Virus record (IMG/VR): IMGVR_UViG_2693429713_000009
Direction: 5' to 3' (one strand)
From: a virus
Lineage: Duplodnaviria; Heunggongvirae; Uroviricota; Caudoviricetes
Length of the DNA stretch: 64,000 nt
A model generated the notes under the pieces. The model was given only the letters and a program-made list of their open reading frames with translations. It was not told the origin of the DNA and ran no database searches. Of the stretch, positions 7,672 through 60,005 are shown piece after piece. Numbering within the stretch: the first letter of the stretch is position 1; every line of letters starts with the position of its first letter. The translations under genes and the position numbers were made by a program.

Positions 7672-8670
7672 ATGCAATCACTGAATACTGTTACGGATCG
7701 CTTCTCCCTGGTAGAGAAAATCCGCAAACACACACCGCAGAACAACCGAAATTACGTCATTCAGTCGGTACGAGACACATTCAACTCGCCAGAAACAAAA
7801 GAGCGTATCGCGCTGGGTGAGATGTATGGTTATTACGGTCATGGTCGCCGGGCGATGCACTATAACAAAACGAAAAGCCTGAACTTGCCGGAAGTCTCTG
7901 TTGTGATGGTAGATGGGAAGCCTGTTGTATTGGAGAACGTGCCGTCAAACAGGACTATCGACATTTCGATTGACGACAACGGCATTGTTACGCATACGCA
8001 GGAAATACTGGATACAGACACCGGGCGTATTGTTCAGGGCATGATTAATTCTGGTGCTGGTGGTTGGTCGTGGGCTACATCTGGTCCAGATTCATCGGTA
8101 TCCTTGGTAAAGTCTTTCCACGGCTTTGATTACGTAACTGTGCCTAACTATATCAGCCTCGACAAGAAAAGCCTGATGCTTGAATCAGCAGAAGAGCGCG
8201 ATGCGGCTATTCATGCAGCACTTATCGAACAAGGTTTTACCGATAACGCAGCTACGGATCTGGTTCACCACTTTTCAGCAATGAAAAATCAGCAAGCCAT
8301 GCTCGAATCTGCACATCGTGAAGCCCTGGAATCAGAATTGATGCTCCTTGAAGTGGAAAACATACAGCTTCGAGATAAGCTGCGCGCTCAAACAGCGATG
8401 ATGGAAAGCCAAGGGGAAAATGCAAAGCAATGCCGCCGGATTTTGCGTGACGCTATCCAGGAAATGCCTGTTTTTATCAGCGCAGAACAGCGCCGGGCGC
8501 TCTGCCGTATGCAGTCTGAAGATGATGCCCGCATAGTGGCTGCGATGCTTGAATCTCTTGGGGCAAATGCTACTTATGGCTTACCGGTATCAGGCAAGAA
8601 AGAACCAGAGTTATCACCGAAGGAGAACAAAAACACCACCCCGTTACTCTTCGTTTCTAGAAGGGGGTGA
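7672..8670 (+). CDS. hypothetical protein, possible prohead protease/scaffold
   Basis: 332 aa, 13 nt after upstream gene; helical acidic C-terminal half. Confidence 0.3.
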   Translation: MQSLNTVTDRFSLVEKIRKHTPQNNRNYVIQSVRDTFNSPETKERIALGEMYGYYGHGRRAMHYNKTKSLNLPEVSVVMVDGKPVVLENVPSNRTIDISIDDNGIVTHTQEILDTDTGRIVQGMINSGAGGWSWATSGPDSSVSLVKSFHGFDYVTVPNYISLDKKSLMLESAEERDAAIHAALIEQGFTDNAATDLVHHFSAMKNQQAMLESAHREALESELMLLEVENIQLRDKLRAQTAMMESQGENAKQCRRILRDAIQEMPVFISAEQRRALCRMQSEDDARIVAAMLESLGANATYGLPVSGKKEPELSPKENKNTTPLLFVSRRG

Positions 8671-8688
8671 TTGCCTTGTTAAGTTAAA

Positions 8689-8697
8689 TTTCTAACA
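8689..8697. promoter_or_regulatory. C1-type operator-like motif TTTCTAACA
   Basis: Member of recurring TGTTAGAAAA/TTTTCTAACA family; followed by AGTGTA-N6-TACACT dyad and a cluster of three GATC sites (8721-8750) upstream of RepL-like gene. Confidence 0.45.
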
Positions 8698-8785
8698 TAG
8701 TGTATTTATATACACTGTTGATCCTGGTGGATGGGATCGAGTAGGATCGCGGTCACTGCTCCGGTAGCGACTGCCAAAAAAGCAA

Positions 8786-9833: not shown

Positions 9834-9887
9834 CCTGTGTGTCTACAAAACATCCCAATGATCGGAAAATGCTCGCTCGATGATTTG

Positions 9888-9917
9888 TGTTAGAAAATTA
9901 ATTTGATGTTTCTAAAT
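9888..9917. promoter_or_regulatory. paired operator-like motifs TGTTAGAAAA-N11-TTTCTAAAT
   Basis: Inverted pair of the recurring motif upstream of the icd/antirepressor unit. Confidence 0.5.
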
Positions 9918-10019
9918 CGGAATGTATGATCTGCATCATCGACTGAAGTCATCCATTGCTGAAATTTTTAGTTGATCTTCCATGTTTTCAGGCTTATATT
10001 CATGCCGTCGTAGCAAATT

Positions 10020-10215
10020 CTGCGACCGGGTTTGACAGCCTGAATACTTACGCGGACAACCGCACATTTCCGATATTGCGGTATTTTTGTGTCCGTAAAA
10101 CCACGTTACGCCCGAATTATGGTGGGGCGTGATGGGGAGGCTTCGGCCTGCTGGTTTCGTAAGTGCCAGTCTGTCAACCCTGTCACGTCCTGCCACCTGT
10201 TTGACAGCGGGTCGC
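10020..10215 (+). ncRNA. candidate c4-like antisense RNA region
   Basis: Non-coding leader upstream of icd-like gene with direct repeats GTTTGACAGC (about 10029 and 10199) and complementary CTGTCAACCCTGTCAC (about 10172). Confidence 0.25.
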
Positions 10216-18000: not shown

Positions 18001-18881
18001 GGACCGTGCTGGCATACCGTTTATTCCAGGGCAGGATGAAAGCCTTTAGCAATATCGATGATATTGAACGGATGTTTAATCAGGTCAAGATCGCGAAAAT
18101 TAAGGCGAAGATCGAAAAAACACGTTCTGCGCTGGTGGCCTGGCGCGATGCATTGTTTGAGCAATATAAATCACTCAGTGATGCAGATGGATGGGCGGCA
18201 TTGGAACAGCTGGCGAATAATGGGGTAGATGGAGCGAAACTCGCCATTGTTCAGGCTGATAACCCCTTGGAATCACCGGCAGCACAGTGGATTAAGGTTG
18301 GGGCTGTCATCAATGCATTTGATGAAAAACACATTAGTAAGGACGATTTTGCTGATGCTGTTTCTGTTAATCGCCTGGTAGAAATGGCTACCCGTCGCGC
18401 CCGTGAGTTGAAAGACGGCGACTATGTGAATGAGTTGCCGGATGCGCTCAAATCGGCAACGTGGCAGGACTATGTATCGCTGAAAAACGGCGGGGCCACT
18501 GAATCAGAGATCGCGAAAAGGCTTGAGCAGGCTGAAAGCAAAAGAGAAGAGCAGGCGGCAGTGGCTGAAGCCAGAGCTGATGAAGCGGCGAATGATGACT
18601 ATATCATTGTGGTTAATGATAAGCCGATTCGCGCTAAGGCGCGTGTTCGCGGGCGCTGGTGGAGCGTCAGCGAAGACGTTGGCGCGGTTTATCTCATTGC
18701 CGACCAGCCAGGTTCCTCGACAATACGGAACGCCAAAGACGCGATTAAGAAGATTGGCGGGCGTTTCTGGAATTTTGAAGCAAACCCGGTTGCTGATGTG
18801 AACTTTGACCGTCCGGCGTGGATGGTATCTACGCGTTACTCGGTAGATGAACTGCGTAAAATAATCGCCGATGCGGCCTAA
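12045..18881 (+). CDS. darB: DarB-like antirestriction protein, N6-adenine methyltransferase plus helicase
   Basis: 2278 aa; TTG start after GAGGGGG; SAM motif VLEPSAGTGIF and NVPFG; helicase Walker A GFGTGLGKTT and DEGH box. Confidence 0.8.
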   Translation: MDKLLHSISEASSLGELIEIVSRLHKLRAVATFGVRKADGVSIQKTRRAANNAAVNLLNSLPPGFDGAKLTDEQRQILAGYTGEGGLTDGEGSQYEYYTPQFMAEGIWDLFADYGIDGGHVLEPSAGTGIFQETKRQGMIMTSAELSPISGRINQLLHPEDDVNIGAFEALAAKDAMYDHAVGNVPFGEGRSGVAGLDPAYANEKNVGNYFVLRTIDKVKPGGLIVLVVPNGMTDGTKYKKLRDKVSRKAEFLGAHRMPSGTFSESGTDTVVDVWVLRKHPETFLEMIPDTDDSTLKSANVLWDTFLKGKWFTTEGKRFVYGDMERTSFRNTLVVKKDGRVSNESMKTALSRRFDSRINWDLLGVTTQAWQGAKVGDKRLVGGIWHEFDGLKWVKDTTTKSSALDVSRYGVSTFGDLQIAFQSTNGILALSWDQISAIASDYPSVVSDEVAAMIRFAGKQREKDRERVMRGALIGQLINKALDLRNLGVNVDDKLADASRLAAAEVAKYGPPHAIKLNGLAEAGAKNWMTFTGNVKQDGSTSDLLAGRLDVTDGAAGIDFTRPEQVIAHLFSDVALNPITLGDFREAFAGELPEDDDAALEYLAKFDDIAIDGYGCLLPMDRATSGDIATKTALLMGWRDASTGEQKANFERQLAKIEEKRIFTPLNKVTVNLNARWLDRRLIKEFLAEQGYDEFKYTEPDLKVVDGILVSPDDYEGKDGVFTGYQLRTVNGKNGNEFKKANNKDGFLNQLENYLNGVKPRGQNANEYLDKIAQLEVSFNDWLRTHPQADQIAREYNDAFNGFIPFTHSDAPLGLEGLSGKRIPLTYQNEEVRRLSEDGRGIMGFGTGLGKTTTALALEAYNFETGRTKRTCIVVPKAVYQNWYHEAQSFYSADAFANMMFIGLDEVRDDSGNILTAPVLDENGEPRLDSNGQPLTRNVVKESASAVIVQRMNMIPSSNWRTVIMTKEQFASIPLREKTIEENSQQAVFNAVEMGRLDLASGKHRDAQKKNKIKDQAANTGTTKKQNIPYFEDMNFDSVIADEGHNYRNSFNAGREAGQLAYLPNPAVSKMARDMAVKAAYMMKRNNGRGVVMLTATPLVNSPIDAFNMLSTVIPQEEWMRMGIITPDDFVRVFGKTATVQVQKISGEVEEKQGLVGFQNLDGLRGIFHRWTTLKTAADVGATVKIPDIIENTLQIPMTGEQEIAYEELRKRAQELSRNDELTVDENGHITNDKPDDFIFSIIRDMDKVAIDPDLYASAITFQFPVELADQVKAIADALPKVAGGKVADDVDEAEEDGAGGLVSTRTSKVVKTAFSEHPTHVEIRASIELEAEILKAIAAAGIDMQQVSHPIPPKYAALIENLREGLKNGKQIVFIDEKAQHQKLRRIIASALQMPEQEIGIINATTVSQAGGIKLKKVNKPTEPTPNKNGEYKEGAWETYYSKLAQYEDYLSAKNDAGLEGMEGIAADYNEGRTRIIICNKKAEVGINLHIGTTDIHHLTLPWTPASIDQRNGRGARVGSPQEKVNVHYYCGKGTFDDFRLDTLKRKKDWIKMVMTSDMSEIANGDADDADERAIMLAANPEERRAIMARQAQEREERLKLKAQREANNALDIYLKAANAAGKDIGMMETELKSAMEQIEYYQRNLDDLIKAGTNRNGQKYALEQLSSYRKRARVLRFAITRAKDADTIMKRSRGDVERAIKSGVLDISIDVIQNPQEYMRTDKNILLHKGSYYRAVIDDRETTAIVRVEKIDGEKAQYLCRIAWLDRASRYARAPGSIVTLPFDSVIEAVTFEEGVAESRATAARGVQCHQLSTILTRDQFYDAIRNGVMNVIAGKPGNAWGGGSAIKYWAYRTDDGQIALSSTYDGMIGQKIGRTSDIAPEQWIYPDINNEALKREVAKIQASDNPLNIVDGEGFLQALYGYDYIQGMQAWGAQATMDDVAQEFENWMAGRGLSGRSLNKVTSEDILSLFRKPSGEGLESFWRTVLAYRLFQGRMKAFSNIDDIERMFNQVKIAKIKAKIEKTRSALVAWRDALFEQYKSLSDADGWAALEQLANNGVDGAKLAIVQADNPLESPAAQWIKVGAVINAFDEKHISKDDFADAVSVNRLVEMATRRARELKDGDYVNELPDALKSATWQDYVSLKNGGATESEIAKRLEQAESKREEQAAVAEARADEAANDDYIIVVNDKPIRAKARVRGRWWSVSEDVGAVYLIADQPGSSTIRNAKDAIKKIGGRFWNFEANPVADVNFDRPAWMVSTRYSVDELRKIIADAA

Positions 18882-18917
18882 CAGATAAGGAGCGGCCCCA
18901 ACCGGGGCCGAATTTGA

Positions 18918-19352
18918 ATGACGACACTAATTGACACTGTAAAACCGACGGAATCCTACCTTGAGGAAATCTTGCCGCAGGCGCTCAATGGCAGGAGTGA
19001 AGAAGAATACCTGACAGTTTATCTTGATGGCATGGTAGAAAGACTGAAGAAAAATCCACAGCTTTATCACCTTTATGGTCCGTGGTGGCCCGCGCTCAAA
19101 ACGATATTGCTGGAGCGCGGCGACATATCATTTGGACAAGTTGTAGATAGTGATGTGGCAGAGATCTACAAAATGAGTCGCCCGGCGCTTACGGTTTTGG
19201 CTGGGCATCTGTATTCGAGCGATCGCCTGGAAAATGACGCGGTATACAATCCCGTTCATGCTCTGGAAGTCGCACCTTATGCTGATGATACAGAGCCATA
19301 CGTGTACATAAGTTACGACGAGTCTATAGAGAAATATCGAATCATGGGGTAG
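18918..19352 (+). CDS. hypothetical protein
   Basis: 144 aa ORF immediately downstream of darB. Confidence 0.4.
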   Translation: MTTLIDTVKPTESYLEEILPQALNGRSEEEYLTVYLDGMVERLKKNPQLYHLYGPWWPALKTILLERGDISFGQVVDSDVAEIYKMSRPALTVLAGHLYSSDRLENDAVYNPVHALEVAPYADDTEPYVYISYDESIEKYRIMG

Positions 19353-19354
19353 CC

Positions 19355-19615
19355 ATGCGAAAGAATCGTAGGTTTACGGTCGAAGACCTAAAGGAATATT
19401 CCATATCGAAGGGGTATGTCCTTGAGTTCCACCGTTACAAGAAGGTTTTTACGCTGCGAAAAGCAGAAAACCCAGCGAGCTGGAGCTGGGTATACTTCCC
19501 TCATACAGAAGACAAACTGGTAGAGCTTGTTGATGATTTAACCTATGAAGGGTGGTTGATCGCAATCGACAAGACAATCACAGAAATATCCGAACAGGAT
19601 AAAATAACCCTTTAA
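19355..19615 (+). CDS. hypothetical protein
   Basis: 86 aa ORF 3 nt after upstream stop. Confidence 0.35.
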   Translation: MRKNRRFTVEDLKEYSISKGYVLEFHRYKKVFTLRKAENPASWSWVYFPHTEDKLVELVDDLTYEGWLIAIDKTITEISEQDKITL

Positions 19616-19751
19616 AAATAACAGGTTGGGTAAATGCCATGCGATTTACCCTCCTTGTTGATTAAGGTCACTCTTTACTCTAAAAGCAAATCCGACCTGT
19701 TGCATATAGACCATCCTTGAGTAGTATCTCTCTTGTTTTACAAATCTAACG

Positions 19752-20246
19752 TTGTTGTTATTATTTCGCATATTTACTATCAATGGGTGTGTTAGAAAAA
19801 TAGCGCGAAAGAGAAGGCGTCGCAGTGAATATTCTGAAACATCCCCACATGCCGCAGCTCTTAGAGAACTGGAGAAAAATCCAGATCTAATCAAAAGGAA
19901 CCATGAGCATTACGAGCAGGTTCGCGTCCTGGACTGGTTGTATCGCAATATGCGTTATGTGTATGAGCATACTCACGCCACTCCAAACGGTGGCCTGCGA
20001 GGCATAAGGACGGCAATAAAAATGGTGGCAGAGGGCCAAAAGAAGGGATATCCCGATCTTTCTATAGACCTTGCTTGTGGGGGATACCACGGAATGCGCA
20101 TTGAGATGAAACATGGGAGAAATCGCCTGACTCCCGAACAACTCGTCTGGATGACCCGCCTCACTGAAGCCGGTTACTACTGCTTTGAGGCGCGCAGTGC
20201 CGCTGAAGCCATAAAAGCTATCACGGAGTATGTTTGTCTTGATTAA
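19752..20246 (+). CDS. VRR-NUC domain nuclease
   Basis: 164 aa; GYPDL and E-x-K signature; start uncertain (TTG in track, operator-like motif at 19790-19799 lies inside predicted N-terminus). Confidence 0.5.
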   Translation: MLLLFRIFTINGCVRKIARKRRRRSEYSETSPHAAALRELEKNPDLIKRNHEHYEQVRVLDWLYRNMRYVYEHTHATPNGGLRGIRTAIKMVAEGQKKGYPDLSIDLACGGYHGMRIEMKHGRNRLTPEQLVWMTRLTEAGYYCFEARSAAEAIKAITEYVCLD

Positions 20247-20260
20247 ACGGAGAAATCGTT

Positions 20261-20461
20261 TTGCGTTTACTTAACGTGGCAGAACTTATCCCTGCAGGAA
20301 CTAATGCTATCGCTCGTCGTCGCTCATGGCAGCAGGCTCTATGTATTGAGATCTCGAAACGTATCAATGGAAGTTTTGAAGCTCACAATATTGTTACTGG
20401 CGATAAGGTTCACATAACCCCGGAAAGTGCAAGCGCTGATGATTGGGAGTTTGTACATTGA
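20261..20461 (+). CDS. hypothetical protein
   Basis: 66 aa ORF. Confidence 0.3.
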   Translation: MRLLNVAELIPAGTNAIARRRSWQQALCIEISKRINGSFEAHNIVTGDKVHITPESASADDWEFVH

Positions 20462-20757
20462 GCAAAAAATATTATGTGAGTCTGGCGTTCGCTGACGATG
20501 CGGGGAGGACGCGGAGTATCACGTTGAGCACACCGGTTAAGGCTGTGACAGCGCCGTTAATCCGTGAAGCTCTCAGAGAGCTGGAATTGGGGGAAAACTC
20601 GGCACTGTTGTCGGTTAGTTGGTTAGGGAAAATGTCAGAGAAACAATACGTGGATGGAGTTACCCCAATAACAGTAATGAGGCTACTTTCATTGCTGCAA
20701 TGGGCCATCGTACCTGTATTTATCGCGTATCTTATTTATCAGGCTGCAACACAGTAA
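20443..20757 (+). CDS. hypothetical protein with C-terminal transmembrane segment
   Basis: 104 aa, hydrophobic C-terminus; followed by terminator. Confidence 0.35.
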   Translation: MGVCTLSKKYYVSLAFADDAGRTRSITLSTPVKAVTAPLIREALRELELGENSALLSVSWLGKMSEKQYVDGVTPITVMRLLSLLQWAIVPVFIAYLIYQAATQ

Positions 20758-20766
20758 TTGCATAAA

Positions 20767-20790
20767 AACCCGCCAATTAGCGGGTTTTTT
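20767..20790 (+). terminator. intrinsic terminator
   Basis: AACCCGC-CAATTA-GCGGGTT then TTTTTT. Confidence 0.65.
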
Positions 20791-20832
20791 GTTTATTGCA
20801 TCTTCCGATACCGTCATCAAACTAATAAAATA

Positions 20833-20842
20833 TGTTAGAAAA
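20833..20842. promoter_or_regulatory. operator-like motif TGTTAGAAAA
   Basis: Upstream of 407-aa gene. Confidence 0.45.
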
Positions 20843-20855
20843 CTAATTTAACAAA

Positions 20856-22079
20856 GTGACGGGAACAGCAATGAGTCAACACACTGATACTTCTAATCTG
20901 GAAATTATCTCGACAGCAATTGAAACGCTGCGCACACAAATCGCTCTTATACAGAAACGGAATCCGGGTGATGACCTGTCAAAGCGACTGCACGAGAGTG
21001 TCATTGCCACTACAGATAACCTGGTGGCGGAAATCAACAAGCTGCTTGATGATGGGGCAGTTGATTACAATAAGCTGGTGGATCAGTTTGAGGAATACCA
21101 ACAAGCCGTTAATGATGGCTTGATCCGTTTTTCACAAGTCACAGGCGTATCAGCGACAGTTGAAAGCCTGGGCGATGCAGTTAATCAATTTGCCGCGAAT
21201 ATGCGTAATGAGATCGGCAATCTGGAAGCGCGTCTTGAACAGGCAAATACACTGCGTAAATCTGCCGAAGCTGATTTGAACCGTTACAAAAAAGACTATC
21301 CGCCCAGCCTGACAAAGCGGCTGGATGTTGCGGAGAAGGATAACCGCACGCTGAAAAGAGAGCGCCGGGAACTAAAAGAGCGTTTAACCAAGCTCAATCA
21401 GCAATGCATTGATTATCAAGGCGAAGGCGTCACACTGCGTAAAAAGTTGGCTACAGCGCAGAGCATTATCGAAACATTAAAGCGAGAGTGCTCACAGCTT
21501 GGTCACGATCTGAACCGTGCTTGTGGCATGGGACAAAGACCAGAGACATTTCCACTTATGTATGACGGAAGGGATGCCATTGCCTACATCCATGAGTATC
21601 CGCACGGCCTGGTTGCGGAAACTGGGCAGCGTGGCGAAGCACTGCTGACGGCTAATTACCATCAACAAATCAGAACCAATCGCCTGTTAACGATGGATGT
21701 GATCCCATCGGTATGGGGAACGCCGCTTTACTATCGCCTGCCGGGCTTCGAAAAGGACTGGAATACCGACATAGACGAATGTCTCGCAGATAAAATTATG
21801 GCGTACCTGGAGACGGATTTTCCGCGCTTATATCGCCGGATTATGGACTCTAAGGATGCGCCAATCGATGAATTAAAAATGCGTCCGGAGACGCTGGAGG
21901 CAATCAAGCAGACGGAGTTTGATACTGTATTCAGTGTGGCCTGCATTCCAAGCTGTTTCCATGAAAGCATTCCGTTCATGCAAGGAGATCGTCGTCAGGA
22001 AATCATTGACGCTTGCCGGGTATGGGCGAACGAATGGGATAAGAAGAATGGGGGTGTAGAAGATCTTTACGGGAAATAA
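20856..22079 (+). CDS. hypothetical coiled-coil protein
   Basis: 407 aa; GTG in track, alternative ATG at 20871. Confidence 0.45.
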   Translation: MTGTAMSQHTDTSNLEIISTAIETLRTQIALIQKRNPGDDLSKRLHESVIATTDNLVAEINKLLDDGAVDYNKLVDQFEEYQQAVNDGLIRFSQVTGVSATVESLGDAVNQFAANMRNEIGNLEARLEQANTLRKSAEADLNRYKKDYPPSLTKRLDVAEKDNRTLKRERRELKERLTKLNQQCIDYQGEGVTLRKKLATAQSIIETLKRECSQLGHDLNRACGMGQRPETFPLMYDGRDAIAYIHEYPHGLVAETGQRGEALLTANYHQQIRTNRLLTMDVIPSVWGTPLYYRLPGFEKDWNTDIDECLADKIMAYLETDFPRLYRRIMDSKDAPIDELKMRPETLEAIKQTEFDTVFSVACIPSCFHESIPFMQGDRRQEIIDACRVWANEWDKKNGGVEDLYGK

Positions 22080-22081
22080 TG

Positions 22082-22091
22082 TGTTAGAAAT
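22082..22091. promoter_or_regulatory. operator-like motif TGTTAGAAAT
   Basis: At start of the non-coding RNA locus. Confidence 0.4.
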
Positions 22092-22237
22092 CTAAAATCA
22101 CAATTCGAATGTATTGATTGTGAAGGTAACTTAACATAGAATTTTCCTTGCTGGTGGGCGGTACCCACGTTTCGCTTGCTGGGCTTGATAGTCACTTATT
22201 GGTTATTGTTCACCCACCAGCATTTAACAAATTAAAG

Positions 22238-22247
22238 TGTTAGAAAA
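22238..22247. promoter_or_regulatory. operator-like motif TGTTAGAAAA
   Basis: Second site upstream of the tRNA/hairpin locus. Confidence 0.4.
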
Positions 22248-22588
22248 GTATAGTAACGCAAGAGCACGCTTTGGCACCGTGCAGGCCAAAGTTCAGTAGG
22301 TTTAGTGCGGAAAGTGGTTTCAGAGAGAGCACTTTGCGAAGTAAACGACAATACATGTTGAGCCACGGAAGGTCTTTTTAAGGTGTTCATTGATGATGGT
22401 CCGGCAGAGAGTAACGGTACATGCTGCATCTAATCATCAATGCACATCTTCAACATTAAGGAGGCATAGGGATTTTTGTGGCGGTTACCTTTTGCCCTGA
22501 GTCTCCTTAATGTTGCAGTAATGCACCTATGCGGATGTGGCCTTGCATTGTGTCTTGAAAGAATGGGGTAAGGCCGGGGATATCCCCA

Positions 22589-26707: not shown

Positions 26708-26727
26708 CGTTAGGTGTTTAATATTAA

Positions 26728-26737
26728 TTTTCTAATA
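26728..26737. promoter_or_regulatory. operator-like motif TTTTCTAATA overlapping TATAAT
   Basis: Variant of recurring motif fused to a -10-like hexamer upstream of Lpa-like gene. Confidence 0.45.
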
Positions 26738-26815
26738 TAATCATCTTTTTACCAGTCTATACAGTTTTAACATTCTCATTATCATCCCCTCGGTCATTTC
26801 CTGCCCGGGGGATTA

Positions 26816-30104: not shown

Positions 30105-31142
30105 TTACCAGAGCTTCGCGGCGTACTGCGTTTGGGGGAATGTGTATCCGTAACGTTCTTCGATTGCTTTGCCGTATTTTTTACGAGCTTCATTCAGTTT
30201 AATGCCGGTCAGGTCGTCTCCAGAGGCCATCATTACGTCTAACAATTCCAGATCCATTTTATCCAGCCTTGCCATTGCTTCACGTGATGTACGTATCTTA
30301 CGCTCAATGATATGGCGAATAGCCGGATCGGCATCCTCCAGCATCTTAGCGGATTTCTGCTTAAGGCTTTCATTGCGAATATCGATGTTCCTTAAGATGT
30401 ACGACTTCGCAACGTAGCTTGGCTGGTGTTTTTCCAGGTCACGAACACGATATAAGTTAAAATCGCCGAGAAGGCTGCAAGGTACCGATTCGACGCCAGA
30501 ATAAATTGTAATGCTCCGGCGTTCACCAACATTATTGACAACGGGGATCGTTGTCTTCGGTAGTCTTGCGAAAACCAATGCGCCATGTGCGCCAACTCTA
30601 AAGCGAGAAAGGGCATTGCTGCCTTCGATGTTTGTTGTCAGCACAACATCTGTATATGCCTCTTTACGCGCCCGGTAGATCTCGCCTTCAGGCTCAGCTT
30701 CAAAGAAGCGCTGTTCTTCTTCAAGAGCACCTACGATTTGAGAAAAAACCCTATTTTTCAGGCTTTTCTTTATGATTTTGTCGTATTTTTTGAGCAATTG
30801 TTCACGTGTAAATGTACGTGTTGTTGTAGCGCTTTGCACAACAACATGCGTGCTTTGATTGGTGTCCTCAATGATGAATGGGATCGGAGAATATACAGAC
30901 TCAACAATGTTCGACGCTTTGCCGTCGGCATCGCGACACATGTCAACGAAGGCTTTCCATTCAGCAAGACATTTTTCAGCTTCTTCTAATATGTTTTGGT
31001 CATGCGTTAATGCAACATGGCGGAATTCCTCGCCAGCATAACTGGTATCATGGAAAACAGAGTTTGCGACCACCAGCTCTTTCCACCGTTCAGCGGTTTG
31101 CAGGAACCGTTTGTACTCTTTCTCGATCGACTTCTTACTCAT
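30105..31142 (-). CDS. C1-like primary repressor (by position)
   Basis: 345 aa, convergent with pacB and divergent from lox-cre as c1 in P1; operator-like motif in its own promoter. Confidence 0.4.
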   Translation of the reverse strand: MSKKSIEKEYKRFLQTAERWKELVVANSVFHDTSYAGEEFRHVALTHDQNILEEAEKCLAEWKAFVDMCRDADGKASNIVESVYSPIPFIIEDTNQSTHVVVQSATTTRTFTREQLLKKYDKIIKKSLKNRVFSQIVGALEEEQRFFEAEPEGEIYRARKEAYTDVVLTTNIEGSNALSRFRVGAHGALVFARLPKTTIPVVNNVGERRSITIYSGVESVPCSLLGDFNLYRVRDLEKHQPSYVAKSYILRNIDIRNESLKQKSAKMLEDADPAIRHIIERKIRTSREAMARLDKMDLELLDVMMASGDDLTGIKLNEARKKYGKAIEERYGYTFPQTQYAAKLW

Positions 31143-31160
31143 TATTCCTACTCGATTTAG

Positions 31161-31170
31161 TTTTCTAACA
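31161..31170. promoter_or_regulatory. operator-like motif TTTTCTAACA in repressor promoter
   Basis: 19 nt upstream of repressor start codon. Confidence 0.5.
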
Positions 31171-31351
31171 TAAAATTACTATGACAAATTTATGTCGAAT
31201 AACAGAGTGAGTAAAGGATCGAACTGTGATTTTTTGTCATCAATTTTAGAAAACCAACTGTATAAACCACACTTCGCAAATTAAAGACCATGAAGGCAAC
31301 GTGTTACTGGTCAGAATCAATCTGTGATGGATTAAAAAAAATCGCCATTTT

Positions 31352-31385
31352 ATAACTTTAAATAATTGGCATTATTTAAAGTTAG
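31352..31385. promoter_or_regulatory. lox-like recombination site
   Basis: ATAACTTTAAATA-ATTGGCAT-TATTTAAAGTTAG: 13-bp inverted arms (12/13) around 8-bp asymmetric spacer, arm ends ATAACTT as in loxP. Confidence 0.7.
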
Positions 31386-34618: not shown

Positions 34619-35386
34619 ATGGAAAGCACCAAAACAATTCAATACCGCTTGCGTAATGGCCTGCTGGTGGCTGTTAACGCCGACATGTCACTGCCGTTTG
34701 ACACGATTGAACGCACTATCATGACGTATCTCGGCTTTAATGAAGAGCTGAATGAAGAGCATGGCGTAGCTATATGGAGTGATGCAGACAGCGGCGTTCG
34801 TCGTTACATCACCGCCAGGGGCAAAGACTACTCTCTGGAAGAACTGTTTGCCCTTGCGCAGTCTTTCGAATGTGTAGCATTAGACCTGTTTAATGATCCT
34901 GCTATAGCGCAACGACTTATACGCGAGCTTGGGCTATCCGTTACACCAATTATCTTTAAAAATGGCAGCCTGACTGGCACATGGCGCGTAGAACGCATCT
35001 CAAACTACCTTCCATATAACCGACAGTTAAATGGAGTAATCTCCGGCGTTAATCAGCCCGTAGCGTGTGAAAATGTAAACCTGGTTGTCGCTGTTTTGGC
35101 AACCGCATGTCGTGTTATCGGTTTGGCTAAACAGGCATTTATTCATTTCCCAAATGGTGCAGAAGGTAGCGCAGAGATTATCGCGTGTGATTTCGAATTT
35201 ACCTGGATGCTACGCGAATATCTGGACCAAACAGTGTTCCGCGCCGAAGAACTGGATATGTATATCACGTCAACGATTCCTGATGATGTGCGTGCTGAAG
35301 CAATCGCTACAGCAAGGGCCAAATGCCGTGCGGCGATTGCAGAGCAGGCCAAAGAAGAAGTTAAGGAAGTGGCAGATGGCGACTAA
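34619..35386 (+). CDS. hypothetical protein coupled to terminase-like paralog
   Basis: 255 aa; stop overlaps start of downstream gene (ATGGCGACTAA). Confidence 0.4.
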   Translation: MESTKTIQYRLRNGLLVAVNADMSLPFDTIERTIMTYLGFNEELNEEHGVAIWSDADSGVRRYITARGKDYSLEELFALAQSFECVALDLFNDPAIAQRLIRELGLSVTPIIFKNGSLTGTWRVERISNYLPYNRQLNGVISGVNQPVACENVNLVVAVLATACRVIGLAKQAFIHFPNGAEGSAEIIACDFEFTWMLREYLDQTVFRAEELDMYITSTIPDDVRAEAIATARAKCRAAIAEQAKEEVKEVADGD

Positions 35387-36470
35387 GAGCAATATTTATA
35401 AAGATCCGCGCTGGCTGTCGCTGGTGGAGAAATATAAAGACAATTGGGTTCTGGCAGCAAAAGAATTGTTTGATATTGATTTAAGCCACCAGCAACAACA
35501 AATTGTTGAAGCTATACAGCCCAATAATGCAAAAGCTACTGTCACCACTCCGCATGGGATCGGACGACCGCAAGTGCTTGCTGTTATTAGTACCCTTTAT
35601 ACGATTATGTATCCTGATTCCCGGACAGTAATTGTTTATCCAAAATCAAATGCTTGCAAAAAAGGAATTGTTGCATATGTGTGGCAATGTTGGGAGGCAT
35701 TACTGAAAAAACAACCTTTTATCATTGAGTATTTTAAGGTCGGTGATAGCGGTCTGATGTTCAATGAATTTTGGGGAATGTGCTTTTGTAACTACCGCCT
35801 TAACTATGAAGATAGCATTGCAGGTCACTACGCCGACCATCTGTTATTCATTATTGTGGATTCCGCACATATAAGCGATCGGGCATACAGTATTGTGTGG
35901 GCAAGCATGACTAGTGGTGATTCACGCATATTGCTCACTTCAATTCCGTCACCAGAGGAAATAGGATTTTTTTATGATTCTCATCATGGGCGTGCTTTAG
36001 CTGAAGATAATCCGAGTGGTGTCTATAAAGCCATTAAGCTGAGTGCTGAGGATTCACCATTTATTACCCAAGAATATCTTGATCATTTTGCCGAAAGGTA
36101 TGGCGGGCGAAATAGTGATGACTACCGTCGTATGATTCTTGGTGAGTTCCCTGGTATTAGGGAGGCTGTTCTTGAATCAGATATGCCGAAAACAATGCGT
36201 TTTTCAATGCCTGATGGCAGTGAATGGACAATGCCATTACGAGTGATAGCCAAGCATCATGCACAGCACCACGCCAAAAAACATGGCGTTACAACATTAG
36301 AGTGGTTGAAATCGCACACCATTCCACTCTTCACTGCAGATCACAATGCTATCGTTGAGTGGGCAAAAACAATTCCGTGGGGGAATGTCGCTGAATACGC
36401 CCACATGCTAAAACCGCCGAAAGACAGGCAAGAAATTAGCTGGCTGACAGCAGAAAAAATCATTGAGTGA
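35376..36470 (+). CDS. degenerate terminase large subunit paralog (ATPase motifs inactivated, nuclease domain absent)
   Basis: 364 aa; aligns with PacB (DPRW, HQQQQI, FYDSHH, EDSPF) but Walker A is HGIGRPQ and Walker B is IIVDSAH. Confidence 0.6.
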   Translation: MATKSNIYKDPRWLSLVEKYKDNWVLAAKELFDIDLSHQQQQIVEAIQPNNAKATVTTPHGIGRPQVLAVISTLYTIMYPDSRTVIVYPKSNACKKGIVAYVWQCWEALLKKQPFIIEYFKVGDSGLMFNEFWGMCFCNYRLNYEDSIAGHYADHLLFIIVDSAHISDRAYSIVWASMTSGDSRILLTSIPSPEEIGFFYDSHHGRALAEDNPSGVYKAIKLSAEDSPFITQEYLDHFAERYGGRNSDDYRRMILGEFPGIREAVLESDMPKTMRFSMPDGSEWTMPLRVIAKHHAQHHAKKHGVTTLEWLKSHTIPLFTADHNAIVEWAKTIPWGNVAEYAHMLKPPKDRQEISWLTAEKIIE

Positions 36471-45142: not shown

Positions 45143-45184
45143 AATGCATACCGACTCTGTTTTGTTCCGATCGGTAAAATAATA

Positions 45185-45213
45185 TGTTAGAAAACTAAAA
45201 TCAATGTTCTAAC
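45185..45213. promoter_or_regulatory. paired operator-like motifs TGTTAGAAAA-N11-GTTCTAAC
   Basis: Intergenic between phosphatase gene and downstream gene. Confidence 0.45.
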
Positions 45214-45240
45214 GTGATTTTGAGTGCGTAAATGATTTGA

Positions 45241-49735: not shown

Positions 49736-49774
49736 GTCCTCCAAACAGTTATCAGGAATGATATTAATGTTTTG

Positions 49775-49805
49775 TGTTAGAAAATCTATTTTGAATATCT
49801 AACCA
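49775..49805. promoter_or_regulatory. operator-like motifs in divergent promoter region
   Basis: TGTTAGAAAA at 49775 and ATCTAACCA at 49797 between leftward operon and ref. Confidence 0.45.
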
Positions 49806-49852
49806 TTTTGATCAATCATAGAAAAATCGCTGAAAAGTAAGAGGCTGCCATC

Positions 49853-50431
49853 ATGCAGAAACAGAGCTATTGGGAGAAACAGAGGCAAAAAGCCATGCAA
49901 AAATTGGCTGACCCGGCCTGGCGAGAGGAACAAAGGGCAAAGCGCCTTCAACAAGCTCAACGCCAGCAGCAGCGAGCGAGAGAAAAAGCCGCATCGCCTG
50001 AATATCGGCAAAAAAAAATTGAAAAAGCAAAGCAATATGACCAGCGGAGAAAAGAGAAAGCTGTATCCGCTCCGTCCAAAAAAACACGCACGTCACGCGG
50101 CCTGAAGGGCAGATCACTCACAGCCGATGAACGCCGGATACAGACCGCTATCGGTACTCTCCCCTGCATTGCCTGCCATATTCACGGGAAACATAGCCCA
50201 GTGGTATCCCTGCACCATATCTTCGGGAGAACGGCAGAGAACGCACATAAATATGTCCTCCCTTTGTGTAAATGGCACCACCAGTACGCAGCGCCAGCCG
50301 AGGTCCGAGAACAATATCCCTGGCTGGTCCCTGTTCATGCTGATGGAAAAATAGGCGGAAAAGCAGATTTCATACGGCACAATGCCGATGAAATGGCGTT
50401 GTATCAGATGGCGATTGAATTGATAAATTAG
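49853..50431 (+). CDS. ref: Ref HNH endonuclease
   Basis: 192 aa; LPCIACHIHG...SLHHI.GRT...LPLCKWHHQYAAPAEVREQYPWLVPVHADG matches P1 Ref as recalled. Confidence 0.8.
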   Translation: MQKQSYWEKQRQKAMQKLADPAWREEQRAKRLQQAQRQQQRAREKAASPEYRQKKIEKAKQYDQRRKEKAVSAPSKKTRTSRGLKGRSLTADERRIQTAIGTLPCIACHIHGKHSPVVSLHHIFGRTAENAHKYVLPLCKWHHQYAAPAEVREQYPWLVPVHADGKIGGKADFIRHNADEMALYQMAIELIN

Positions 50432-50440
50432 TTTTCTAAC
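50431..50440. promoter_or_regulatory. operator-like motif TTTTCTAACA
   Basis: Immediately after ref stop. Confidence 0.4.
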
Positions 50441-50763
50441 ATTTTAAGTTGAATTGTGAATTTCCCCGATGTACATTCACTACCGATTGGTACACCGGTC
50501 AACTTTTTGAGACAAACTGTTTAGTTTTTCGTATTATTGCCGCCGCCATACCTATGGCGGTGCAATATAGGTGGCTGAAAAGCCCCCGTTGACTCACGGT
50601 GTTCCAGCCTTTATTGCGCCGCCACCAGACCGTGGAACAGTCGATGGCGGCTCCGAAAGCAAGGAGTCACTACACTATGAACAACTACAGTCTTTTCCCA
50701 TCACTCGTCGTCCACCACTCACGCGATAATCTGCATTCTTTACTCGCGCCGGGGGTGTCAAAA

Positions 50764-52343: not shown

Positions 52344-52438
52344 GTAAACAAAATGAAGTTTTATGTTATAAAAACAATTAACTACATCAACATGATTTAG
52401 GCCAAATTTCGGTCAAAAAATAAAATCCACAAAAAGTG

Positions 52439-53923: not shown

Positions 53924-55112
53924 TTTCCTGAAAAACCAGGACGGGCGCTATATCACTGACGGCCTGTCCTCTAAGGACTTCACGCGTTTATTCGACCTTA
54001 TCAGGAAAGAACAAACCCGTAAGCGCCGACAAGCTCACCGGACGCTGACGCCAGGTAGACTGAGGAACAAATCCGCCGAAGATATTCTCAAGTTAGGGAA
54101 GAAAAAAGGCGGCACGTTCTTCACGCGAGACGACCTGAAAGGTTTCGAAAAGCTACGGAGTAAAACACGCGAAAAATATGACAGCAAGACGGCTGGCATC
54201 ACATACGCCCAGCTGGTGGCATCCAGCCAAGCAATCGATATTAAGCGTGCAAATAACGCCGTGGATGACGGATCTGGTATCAAAAGAGCTACACCCGTAT
54301 CTCTTCGCCACAACGTGATTAATATCCGCGTAGAAGCATCGGATATATCCGTCCACCAGCACCATATCGTCCGGATACGCTTTGAAGAATGGGATCAGAT
54401 GGTCGATGACATCGCAGAAGACGATAAATCAGCCCTGAAAATCACTAAATCACTGTGCGCCGGGCGGGTGTCTTTCGATTGTGACTGTGGTCGTCATCAA
54501 TACTGGTATCGTTACATCGCTACTGCGGGTAACTTTGCCCTGGCCCCGCCAAAAGAATACGCCTATCCAAAAGTTCGTAACCCTAAGCTACAAGGCGTCG
54601 CCTGTAAACACGTGATCCACTCAATGACGCGGTTACAGTCCGCTAGTTGGCAAATGAGTATTGCTCGTGCGTTACAAAAGGCCGCAACGCAAATTGCATT
54701 TGGTGACGATCGCCGCCGTACAACCAAACACTTCTCAAAAGAAGACGAGAGGGAGTTTAATCGCAATCGCAACAGTAAAACAAACGTTGACGTTGCCAAG
54801 CGCGAATGGAGGCTCTATCAGAAGCGCCAGGCCGCTTTAAGCACAAAACTGGCAAAGGACAACGGCAAAATTGACAAGCTACGTGACCAATTGACCAAAG
54901 CCAGAAAGTTGTCAGACGCACAGAAAAAACGGGCGGCAGCAAAAGAAGCGGCCTTGCAACGTGAGAAACAGAAAAACAAGGAGCTTCAGCAACGCCTTGC
55001 CGATCAGTTCGCACTGAAGAAGCAGGCGTTCATTGATGCGCTTGTCATGGCAGGAACGTCACCTGAGCAAGCTGAAAAAATGTTTATGGAGTATGTGAAG
55101 AAAGGTTCTTAA
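53916..55112 (+). CDS. SWIM zinc-finger protein with basic coiled-coil tail
   Basis: 398 aa; CDCGRH...CKH pattern; Lys/Arg-rich helical C-terminus. Confidence 0.45.
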   Translation: MPDFLKNQDGRYITDGLSSKDFTRLFDLIRKEQTRKRRQAHRTLTPGRLRNKSAEDILKLGKKKGGTFFTRDDLKGFEKLRSKTREKYDSKTAGITYAQLVASSQAIDIKRANNAVDDGSGIKRATPVSLRHNVINIRVEASDISVHQHHIVRIRFEEWDQMVDDIAEDDKSALKITKSLCAGRVSFDCDCGRHQYWYRYIATAGNFALAPPKEYAYPKVRNPKLQGVACKHVIHSMTRLQSASWQMSIARALQKAATQIAFGDDRRRTTKHFSKEDEREFNRNRNSKTNVDVAKREWRLYQKRQAALSTKLAKDNGKIDKLRDQLTKARKLSDAQKKRAAAKEAALQREKQKNKELQQRLADQFALKKQAFIDALVMAGTSPEQAEKMFMEYVKKGS

Positions 55113-59946: not shown

Positions 59947-59962
59947 AAAATGCACCCATTTA

Positions 59963-59992
59963 TGTTAGATAATTAACATGCATTTTCTAACA
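59963..59992. promoter_or_regulatory. paired operator-like motifs TGTTAGATAA-N10-TTTTCTAACA
   Basis: Inverted pair upstream of rdgC. Confidence 0.5.
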
Positions 59993-60005
59993 CAAATGGT
60001 GAGAC

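Follow-up and report, generated by a model that had tools for sequence, protein, structure and literature searches.

The 64,000-nucleotide viral sequence analysed here (the window) carries a short motif, TGTTAGAAAA, that recurs in front of many genes, among them the gene of a candidate repressor. This raises the question of which protein reads the motif, and whether the motif marks an immunity type separate from that of phage P1. Based on the analogy with P1 and on comparison with related phage-plasmids, we consider it very probable that TGTTAGAAAA forms the core of the operator to which the C1-type master repressor of a D6-like phage-plasmid would bind.

A P1-type phage-plasmid related to D6

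Over most of its length the window aligns with Escherichia phage D6 (MF356679, AY753669) at 97-99% identity in a mosaic fashion, and positions 33000-57000 (24 kb compared) are 99.9% identical to Salmonella enterica plasmid NZ_CP028198.1. Judged by these alignments, the window is a plasmid prophage of P1 type that belongs to the phage D6 lineage, and we transferred the D6 gene map to it by tblastn. Phage D6 is the source of the Dre-rox recombination tool. Neither of the two D6 GenBank records annotates an operator, and the open literature that we searched, which did not reach the primary D6 papers, gave nothing relevant to one; the operator may already have been noted in those papers.

An open reading frame at 35085-36470 (+), which lies among accessory genes and far from the pacA-pacB operon, shares 37.6% identity with the large terminase PacB (residues 10-264). 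The Chi sequence GCTGGTGG is present in 46 copies against 1.7 expected across the whole window (for example at 8056, 10524 and 22150). Every related phage-plasmid locus that we examined shows an equal excess, L010 for instance with 45 copies of the 8-mer in 41 kb.

A recurrent motif within a longer asymmetric site

The original prediction had described a recurrent 10-bp motif, and this recurrence is borne out: exact TGTTAGAAAA/TTTTCTAACA occurs nine times on the two strands of the 64-kb window (9888+, 19790+, 20833+, 22238+, 31161-, 45185+, 49775+, 50432- and 59983-), where 0.19 copies would be expected, and nine exact copies were not reached in any of 100 shuffles that preserved dinucleotides. 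Allowing up to one mismatch yields 19 matches in the window against 5.5 expected, the one-mismatch copies including those at 8688, 22082, 26728, 32571 and 59963. All site coordinates originally proposed proved correct to within 1-2 bp. When all 10-mers were counted without bias, TGTTAGAAAA was the commonest in the window and, Chi aside, no other repeated 10-mer competed with it. As a positive control, the same count on phage P1 returned ATTGCTCTAA, the known core of the C1 operator, so 10-mer counting recovers a true operator in a related genome.

Alignment of the flanking DNA extended the conserved block beyond TGTTAGAAAA to an asymmetric site of ~19 bp, TRTGTTAGAAAAYTAAWWT. The earlier reading had thus caught the 10-bp motif and missed the longer site that contains it, the fixed 30-bp geometry of the paired copies and the D6-type identity of the element. 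Scanning with a 19-bp matrix identified 14 strong sites of at least 20 bits and three weak ones (19734, 31242 and 52362); at 14 bits or more, the window contains 15 sites compared to 0.3 in Markov shuffles. The matrix is non-palindromic and the strong sites are dispersed over ~51 kb (8.7-60.0 kb of the window), an arrangement of many scattered asymmetric ~17-bp sites at promoters rather than one palindromic cluster. The same matrix gives 19 matches in the whole D6 genome. One further strong site of D6 lies beyond the window (D6 54201-54219, 24.3 bits), just upstream of orf52 by the major capsid gene.

Enrichment in intergenic DNA had been chosen beforehand as the result on which the prediction would stand or fall. 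We found 13 of the 14 strong sites in non-coding DNA, which makes up 11.4% of the window (binomial P = 7e-12), a result that leaves the prediction standing. The sole strong site inside annotated coding DNA, at 19788, falls in the 5' end of pmgM under the D6 annotation, a gene that PGAP calls shorter in relatives. The D6-style pmgM start is a TTG at 19752 and lies within a promoter-like TTTACA-16-TATTAT (19737-19764), and the PGAP call in relatives is a much shorter VRR-NUC gene; the D6 start is therefore probably placed too far upstream.

Genes behind the sites

The original prediction had placed sites upstream of the repressor gene itself, ref, lpa, repL, the icd/antirepressor unit, an RNA locus and rdgC-dam, and both the transferred gene map and the Rfam matches agree with that placement (Table 1). 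Several of the products are recognisable: that of lpa, the late-promoter activator gene, matches Pfam BPP1_LPA (5e-57), that of ref matches RecA_dep_nuc (1.5e-34), and RdgC has a Pfam match at 5e-102. The pair at 9886 precedes c4-a1b1, the C4 RNA, icd and the antirepressor gene, with Rfam matches to c4-a1b1 at 9994-10046 and to C4 at 10115-10200. Downstream of the 22080 site the DNA is 93% identical to the dicF-like/tRNA region of P1, the 20831 site lies 7 bp before the annotated pmgS start, and the weak mat site has a D6 ortholog of 13.3 bits.

We then compared this layout with the GenBank record of P1, which places C1 operators at ref, mat, ssb, c4, kilA-repL, rlf and uhr-hrdC-dmt and also at ban, 26/pmgL, ppp, pmgR/S, pmgT, lpa and c1. 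For 12 of these P1 operator loci the genes could be located in the window, and ten of the 12 show a D6-type site in the corresponding position. The sites match Oc1, Olpa, OrepL, Oc4, Oref, Odmt, Oban, O26/pmgL and OpmgR, and weakly Omat, which upholds the earlier claim that the controlled set mirrors the C1 regulon of P1; the candidate regulon covers c1, lpa, the lytic replicon, immI (c4-icd-ant), ref and dmt. One site, in front of the dut operon (32564), goes beyond the P1 set; we found no P1 counterpart for it, and it is conserved in D6 and in the related loci L007, L008, L009 and L014.

In D6, icd/antirepressor genes follow the second C4-like RNA (D6 74000-75490). These genes are missing in the window after 50550-50629, so this second C4-like RNA locus appears orphaned.

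Table 1. Candidate operator sites and associated features. Positions refer to the window except in the last line; scores in bits are from the 19-bp matrix unless stated otherwise.
Feature	Position	Strand	Score and context	Analog in P1
Candidate operator	8681..8699	-	27.3 bits; 172 bp upstream of repL	OrepL/Op53
Candidate inverted-pair (bivalent) operator	9886..9919	.	30.2 bits + degenerate partner ATTTAGAAAC	Oc4/Op51
Weak + strong direct candidate sites, pmgM promoter	19734-19752, 19788-19806	+	14.4, 20.2 bits	O26/pmgL
Candidate operator between pmgR and pmgS	20831..20849	+	29.8 bits	OpmgR
Candidate operator, head of tRNA/ban-like operon	22080..22098	+	26.6 bits	Oban/Op72
Second candidate operator, tRNA/ban-like operon leader	22236..22254	+	20.3 bits; kept in D6 and L007	
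Candidate operator	26721..26739	-	25.8 bits; 77 bp upstream of lpa	Olpa/Op94
c1, 345-aa C1-family repressor	30105..31142	-	tblastn 100% to D6 C1	
Candidate operator	31154..31172	-	26.7 bits; 12 bp upstream of c1 ATG	Oc1
Weak inverted operator-like site upstream of c1, TTTTAGAAAACC	31242..31260	+	11.8 bits	
Candidate operator at dre stop codon	32564..32582	-	28.5 bits; 57 bp upstream of orf117-orf116-dut operon	
Candidate inverted-pair operator, ppp/pdcB gap	45183..45216	.	28.2 bits + partner CGTTAGAACA	
Candidate inverted-pair operator, divergent ref/orf88 operons	49773..49806	.	23.8 bits + partner GGTTAGATAT	Oref
Candidate operator	50425..50443	-	27.3 bits; ~107 bp upstream of second C4-like RNA	
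Second C4-like RNA	50550-50629	+	Rfam RF01695, 40.2 bits (Rfam; gathering score 45), E = 4e-6	
Weak candidate site upstream of mat	52362..52380	+	13.0 bits	Omat (possible)
Candidate inverted-pair operator, directly upstream of rdgC(hrdC)-dcm-dmt	59961..59994	.	24.9 + 22.9 bits	Odmt/Op68
(G)CCTTAGAAT copies in Citrobacter plasmid NZ_CP099371 (L013)	5778, 13617, 18377, 26034, 26214, 39799		also in L011 and L012	

Inverted pairs and promoter overlap

Several of the sites had been described as inverted pairs, with three listed; the pairs are real and there are four of them. Each spans exactly 30 bp (9888-9917, 45185-45214, 49775-49804 and 59963-59992), and within each the two sites stand opposed, the AT-rich tails turned inward and overlapping. 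The partner half-site is degenerate in three of the pairs, scoring below 8 bits in the matrix scan. The same 15-bp offset is found in a relative in which further loci are paired. In locus L008 the lpa site is paired and both halves of the ref pair are strong. The 45183 pair is likewise paired in D6, L007 and L008.

At their centres the pairs carry a -35-like TTGATG, TTGATT or TTGAAT, with a -10-like hexamer just outside. The 9886 pair covers the -35 of TTGATG-16-TATGAT, the centre of the 45183 pair is a TTGATT, and the 59961/59976 pair has a -10-like GATAAT inside it. Three single sites run antiparallel to their gene, so that their TAACAT or TAATAT end is itself a -10-like hexamer behind a spaced -35. 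The 8681 site supplies its own TAACAT 16 bp after TTGCCT, and a TTGAAT-16-TAACAT overlaps the 50425 site. In all, promoter-like hexamers overlap sites at c4, pmgM, rdgC, repL, the second C4 locus, pdcB and ref, and a promoter-like TTGATT-17-TAGAAT lies at 22114-22142 in the leader of the tRNA/ban-like operon. A simple consensus scan gave no convincing overlapping promoter at lpa, at the orf117 operon or at 22236. Promoter-like sites in the window do not exceed shuffles in total, and we report individual overlaps alone; several sites are 60-200 bp from the nearest start codon. As judged from these consensus matches, the layout is the one expected for repression through promoter occlusion.

A distant homolog of the P1 repressor

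The 345-aa protein originally put forward as the repressor is a distant homolog of P1 C1. Pairwise BLASTP aligns the two over 240 aa at 21% identity (E = 2e-8), and both belong to phrog_1678 (2.8e-170 for the D6-type protein and 2.6e-140 for P1 C1) and, by precomputed assignment, to Pfam PF27008, Phage_P7_repressor_C1. The D6-type protein falls far below the NCBIfam cut-off for C1 equivalogs (25 vs 500 bits). A profile search of a local Pfam copy with the D6-type protein returned no match and no recognisable DNA-binding domain, and we found no solved structural homolog of C1.

The family is small: at 50% identity it amounts to 131 cluster representatives in a set of 1.84 billion proteins. Homologs of D6-type C1 are encoded by 149 PLSDB plasmids. 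In an alignment of 13 sequences the invariant residues are R41, P86, P88, R157, R159 and H186; in an alignment of 85 sequences only R159 and G187 are invariant, with R41 and P88 nearly so.

Three proposed operator types

The original prediction also held that the motif differs from the P1 operator. In agreement with this, the P1/P7 operator consensus ATTGCTCTAATAAATTT has no match in the window at up to three mismatches, and the D6-type matrix finds only three weak matches and no strong site in P1 (94.8 kb). Since the window and P1 each lack sites of the other's type, we predict from the operator sequences that the D6 group has an immunity specificity separate from that of P1/P7.

Among the relatives examined, the motif goes with the type of repressor: those whose C1 proteins are 90, 80, 68, 51 and 42% identical retain (T)GTTAGAAAA in intergenic DNA at orthologous sites. 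When the c1-dre intergenic region was aligned across five lineages, the c1-adjacent site emerged as the best conserved block apart from rox. Its block TTTATGTTAGAAAAC is conserved in all five, down to 42% C1 identity, and TTTTCTAAA, which belongs to the weak 31242 site, is kept in the four closer lineages.

Two observations on this region stand beside the comparison. Next to rox (~31340-31352; alignment columns 185-200), relatives have AAAGTTAGAAA, an operator-like core placed like Oc1e by lox in P1, and the window has AAAGTTATAAAA, in which the core G is changed. In addition, the Salmonella Typhi plasmid pK91 (NZ_CP029912; L009) contains at 18557-21038 a dre-c1 fragment with a C1 of 68% identity and two operator sites, cut by IS26. 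As pK91 is a conjugative IncFIB resistance plasmid, the fragment is a D6-like remnant in an unrelated plasmid.

More distant relatives from Citrobacter, Leclercia and Pantoea, whose C1 is ~29% identical, have 0-1 matches to the D6 matrix and carry a recurrent intergenic CCTTAGAAT instead. The Citrobacter locus has six exact copies against 0.24 expected. All six fall between genes, close to rdgC, ref and lpa and behind the recombinase gene, and the c1 region contains further copies that differ at one position. This motif is probably the operator of a third immunity type. The three operator types have only a TTAGA core in common (on the reverse strand in P1, ATTAGAGCAAT).

Proposed mechanism and alternative readings

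P1 C1 binds as a monomer. D6-type C1 most likely binds with one molecule per asymmetric site of ~17-19 bp, and its sites, which stand at promoters for early functions, replication, immunity and recombination, would keep the prophage silent. Since the sites overlap or abut sigma-70-like -35 or -10 hexamers, occupancy by C1 would block RNA polymerase; its predicted targets are the lytic replicon, the late activator, the immI antirepressor unit, several DNA-metabolism operons and c1 itself. Autoregulation would act through the site adjoining the c1 start and the weaker inverted one ~90 bp upstream, and the 30-bp pairs resemble the bivalent operators of P1. With lpa, repL and the c4-icd-antirepressor unit all carrying sites, loss of C1 activity would trigger both lytic replication and the cascade of late genes, as happens in P1.

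Could a different regulator be responsible? On this account another phage or host protein (an Xre-like regulator, a Roi/Rha-type antirepressor, or IHF/Fis) binds the motif and C1 recognises something else. Such a reading draws on the indirect nature of the assignment to C1, on the failure of the Pfam search to recognise a DNA-binding domain in that protein, and on the AT-richness of a motif that sits in AT-rich promoter DNA. However, the sites fall at the same loci as the annotated C1 operators of P1, including directly before c1, and the motif is absent from P1, a phage with the same host and many of the same genes. The motif also changes with the type of C1 inside Enterobacterales, which argues against a host factor, and the window offers no competing repeated 10-mer but Chi. 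The link between motif and C1 builds on the P1 analogy and on co-variation across genomes that diverge as a whole, so some other co-evolving regulator is formally possible. Overall we regard binding by a regulator other than C1 as unlikely.

Less probable again is that the motif is a promoter element, such as a box for the late activator Lpa or for an alternative sigma factor. The motif does contain -10-like hexamers (TAGAAA, and TAACAT on the other strand) and does sit in promoter regions. Yet single copies point either way with respect to the gene behind them, others form inverted pairs, the motif precedes lpa and c1 themselves, and it is missing at the heads of the structural and lysis operons lydA, prt, darB, gp26-25 and gp7. 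P1 late promoters have a different -22 box, AAGTGACTT, and the P1-style late promoter box AAGTGACT...TAnnnT is not enriched in the window (17 vs 14 expected at two mismatches).

That the motif serves replication, partition or packaging (as an iteron, a centromere or a pac-like repeat), or has arisen by chance from the AT-rich make-up of intergenic DNA, is the least credible reading and highly improbable: iterons and centromere repeats are known from phage-plasmids, and the motif is rich in A and T, but its copies stand singly or in pairs over ~51 kb with no tandem arrays, none lies at a plasmid replicon in the window, the observed count is never equalled in dinucleotide-preserving shuffles, and orthologous copies are conserved where their flanks diverge. 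Taken together, both orientations, absence from the structural operon heads examined, absence from P1 and change between lineages with the same host disfavour all of these alternatives, and an operator of C1 is the reading that we retain.

A predicted Tus-like fold

To ask how C1 might hold an asymmetric site, we turned to structure prediction. An AlphaFold2 model of C1 built from 9 sequences had a pLDDT of 78.8, and one built from 21 sequences including P1-type C1s reached 84.6 (five models, 81.5-84.6; pTM 0.53). Both models lead to a single protein, Tus of E. coli in complex with Ter DNA. A Foldseek search of the PDB gave just four matches with E <= 0.001, all of them Tus (E = 4e-8 to 2e-6, probability 1.00, ~273 aligned columns), and the next match after the Tus entries had E = 0.11. 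TM-scores between the C1 model and Tus are low, at 0.34-0.40, with 7-10% identity. C1 is tentatively predicted to fold like the replication terminator Tus. Tus, a two-domain alpha/beta protein with a central beta-sheet that grips DNA, is a monomer that clamps an asymmetric site, and the predicted fold fits a C1 monomer on an asymmetric operator.

We rejected homology between C1 and Tus at the level of sequence. Alignment with hhalign gave probabilities of 0.7% and 4.8%, neither significant, with both alignments placing C1 ~113-179 on Tus ~179-247; C1 profiles found no match among PDB sequences, and the Pfam search with C1 found no match to the Tus sequence family (PF05472). The link is carried by the fold comparison. 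Also set aside as evidence was a similarity between the operator and TerB (TATGTT..AACTAA with a 2-bp gap), with TerB taken from the E. coli genome, as shuffling gives P ~0.15. In function the two proteins differ, C1 acting in transcriptional repression and not in fork arrest, and the comparison is between Tus and a model of C1 rather than a solved structure.

These observations allow a tentative proposal, which we hold to be possible while leaning against it. P1- and D6-like C1 repressors may share ancestry with Tus and may grip their ~20-bp asymmetric sites as monomers through a Tus-like cleft, in which case Tus-Ter, the chromosomal fork trap of Enterobacterales, would derive from, or be co-ancestral with, a phage-plasmid immunity repressor, and TGTTAGAAAA, CCTTAGAAT and ATTAGAGCAAT would be variants of one TTAGA-based mode of recognition. 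A Tus-like cleft would then explain a long-known oddity of C1, its monomeric and non-palindromic operators. If confirmed, the fold would give a first structural rationale for monomeric binding by C1 at asymmetric sites and would connect the Tus-Ter fork trap, in its origin, with repressors of mobile elements. The tus gene has been proposed to derive from a (domesticated) plasmid gene (PMC6549158); we found no paper on a link between C1 and Tus in the searchable literature.

Comparison with known systems

D6-like phage-plasmids are common in E. coli and Salmonella. Knowledge of their operator would give the immunity specificity of the group and a predicted regulon map for annotating such plasmids, and the repressor and operator, predicted to form a pair that does not cross-react with C1 of P1, could serve in engineering. 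The graded relatives, with TGTTAGAAAA, CCTTAGAAT and ATTGCTCTAAT, form a natural data set on how specificity changes within the C1 family.

Among the closest known systems is phage D6 itself. Its C1 is 100% identical to that of the window and it has an ortholog of every window site; the window is a mosaic variant that lacks the second icd/antirepressor unit and carries other accessory genes. The C1-like systems of the Citrobacter, Leclercia and Pantoea relatives belong to the same family, with the same genome architecture and an intergenic motif at the same loci, and differ in the motif, of which CCTTAGAAT and TGTTAGAAAA have the TTAGAA core alone in common.

In phage P1, C1 acts on 22 operators with an asymmetric 17-bp consensus and is modulated by Coi and Lxc (PMC8546580). 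No homolog of the co-repressor Lxc was detected in a D6-like plasmid (PMC6799933), so the details of control may differ from those in P1. The likeness to P1 and P7, with their dispersed operators Op2 to Op99, is otherwise extensive and includes a homologous repressor, single asymmetric ~17-bp sites scattered over a plasmid prophage of ~90 kb, the gene classes behind them (c1, lpa, repL, c4-icd-ant, ref, rdgC/dmt, the ban/tRNA operon, pmgM and pmgS) and the presence of some operators as overlapping inverted pairs. Within the pairs the geometry departs from that of P1: the bivalent operators Oc1ab and Obanab have their tails inward as in the window, but span 28 bp, and the TTAGA cores are convergent and 21 bp apart in the window whereas they are divergent and 13 bp apart in P1. 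Alignment of the D6 operator with that of P1 could follow either of two registers, on the 3' AT-rich tail or on the TTAGA core, which imply opposite orientations within pairs. D6-type C1 is also longer than P1 C1 by ~60 C-terminal residues, which form a helical domain in our models. The kind of system is already known from P1 C1 immunity; what differs here is the operator sequence, the geometry of its pairs and the longer repressor.
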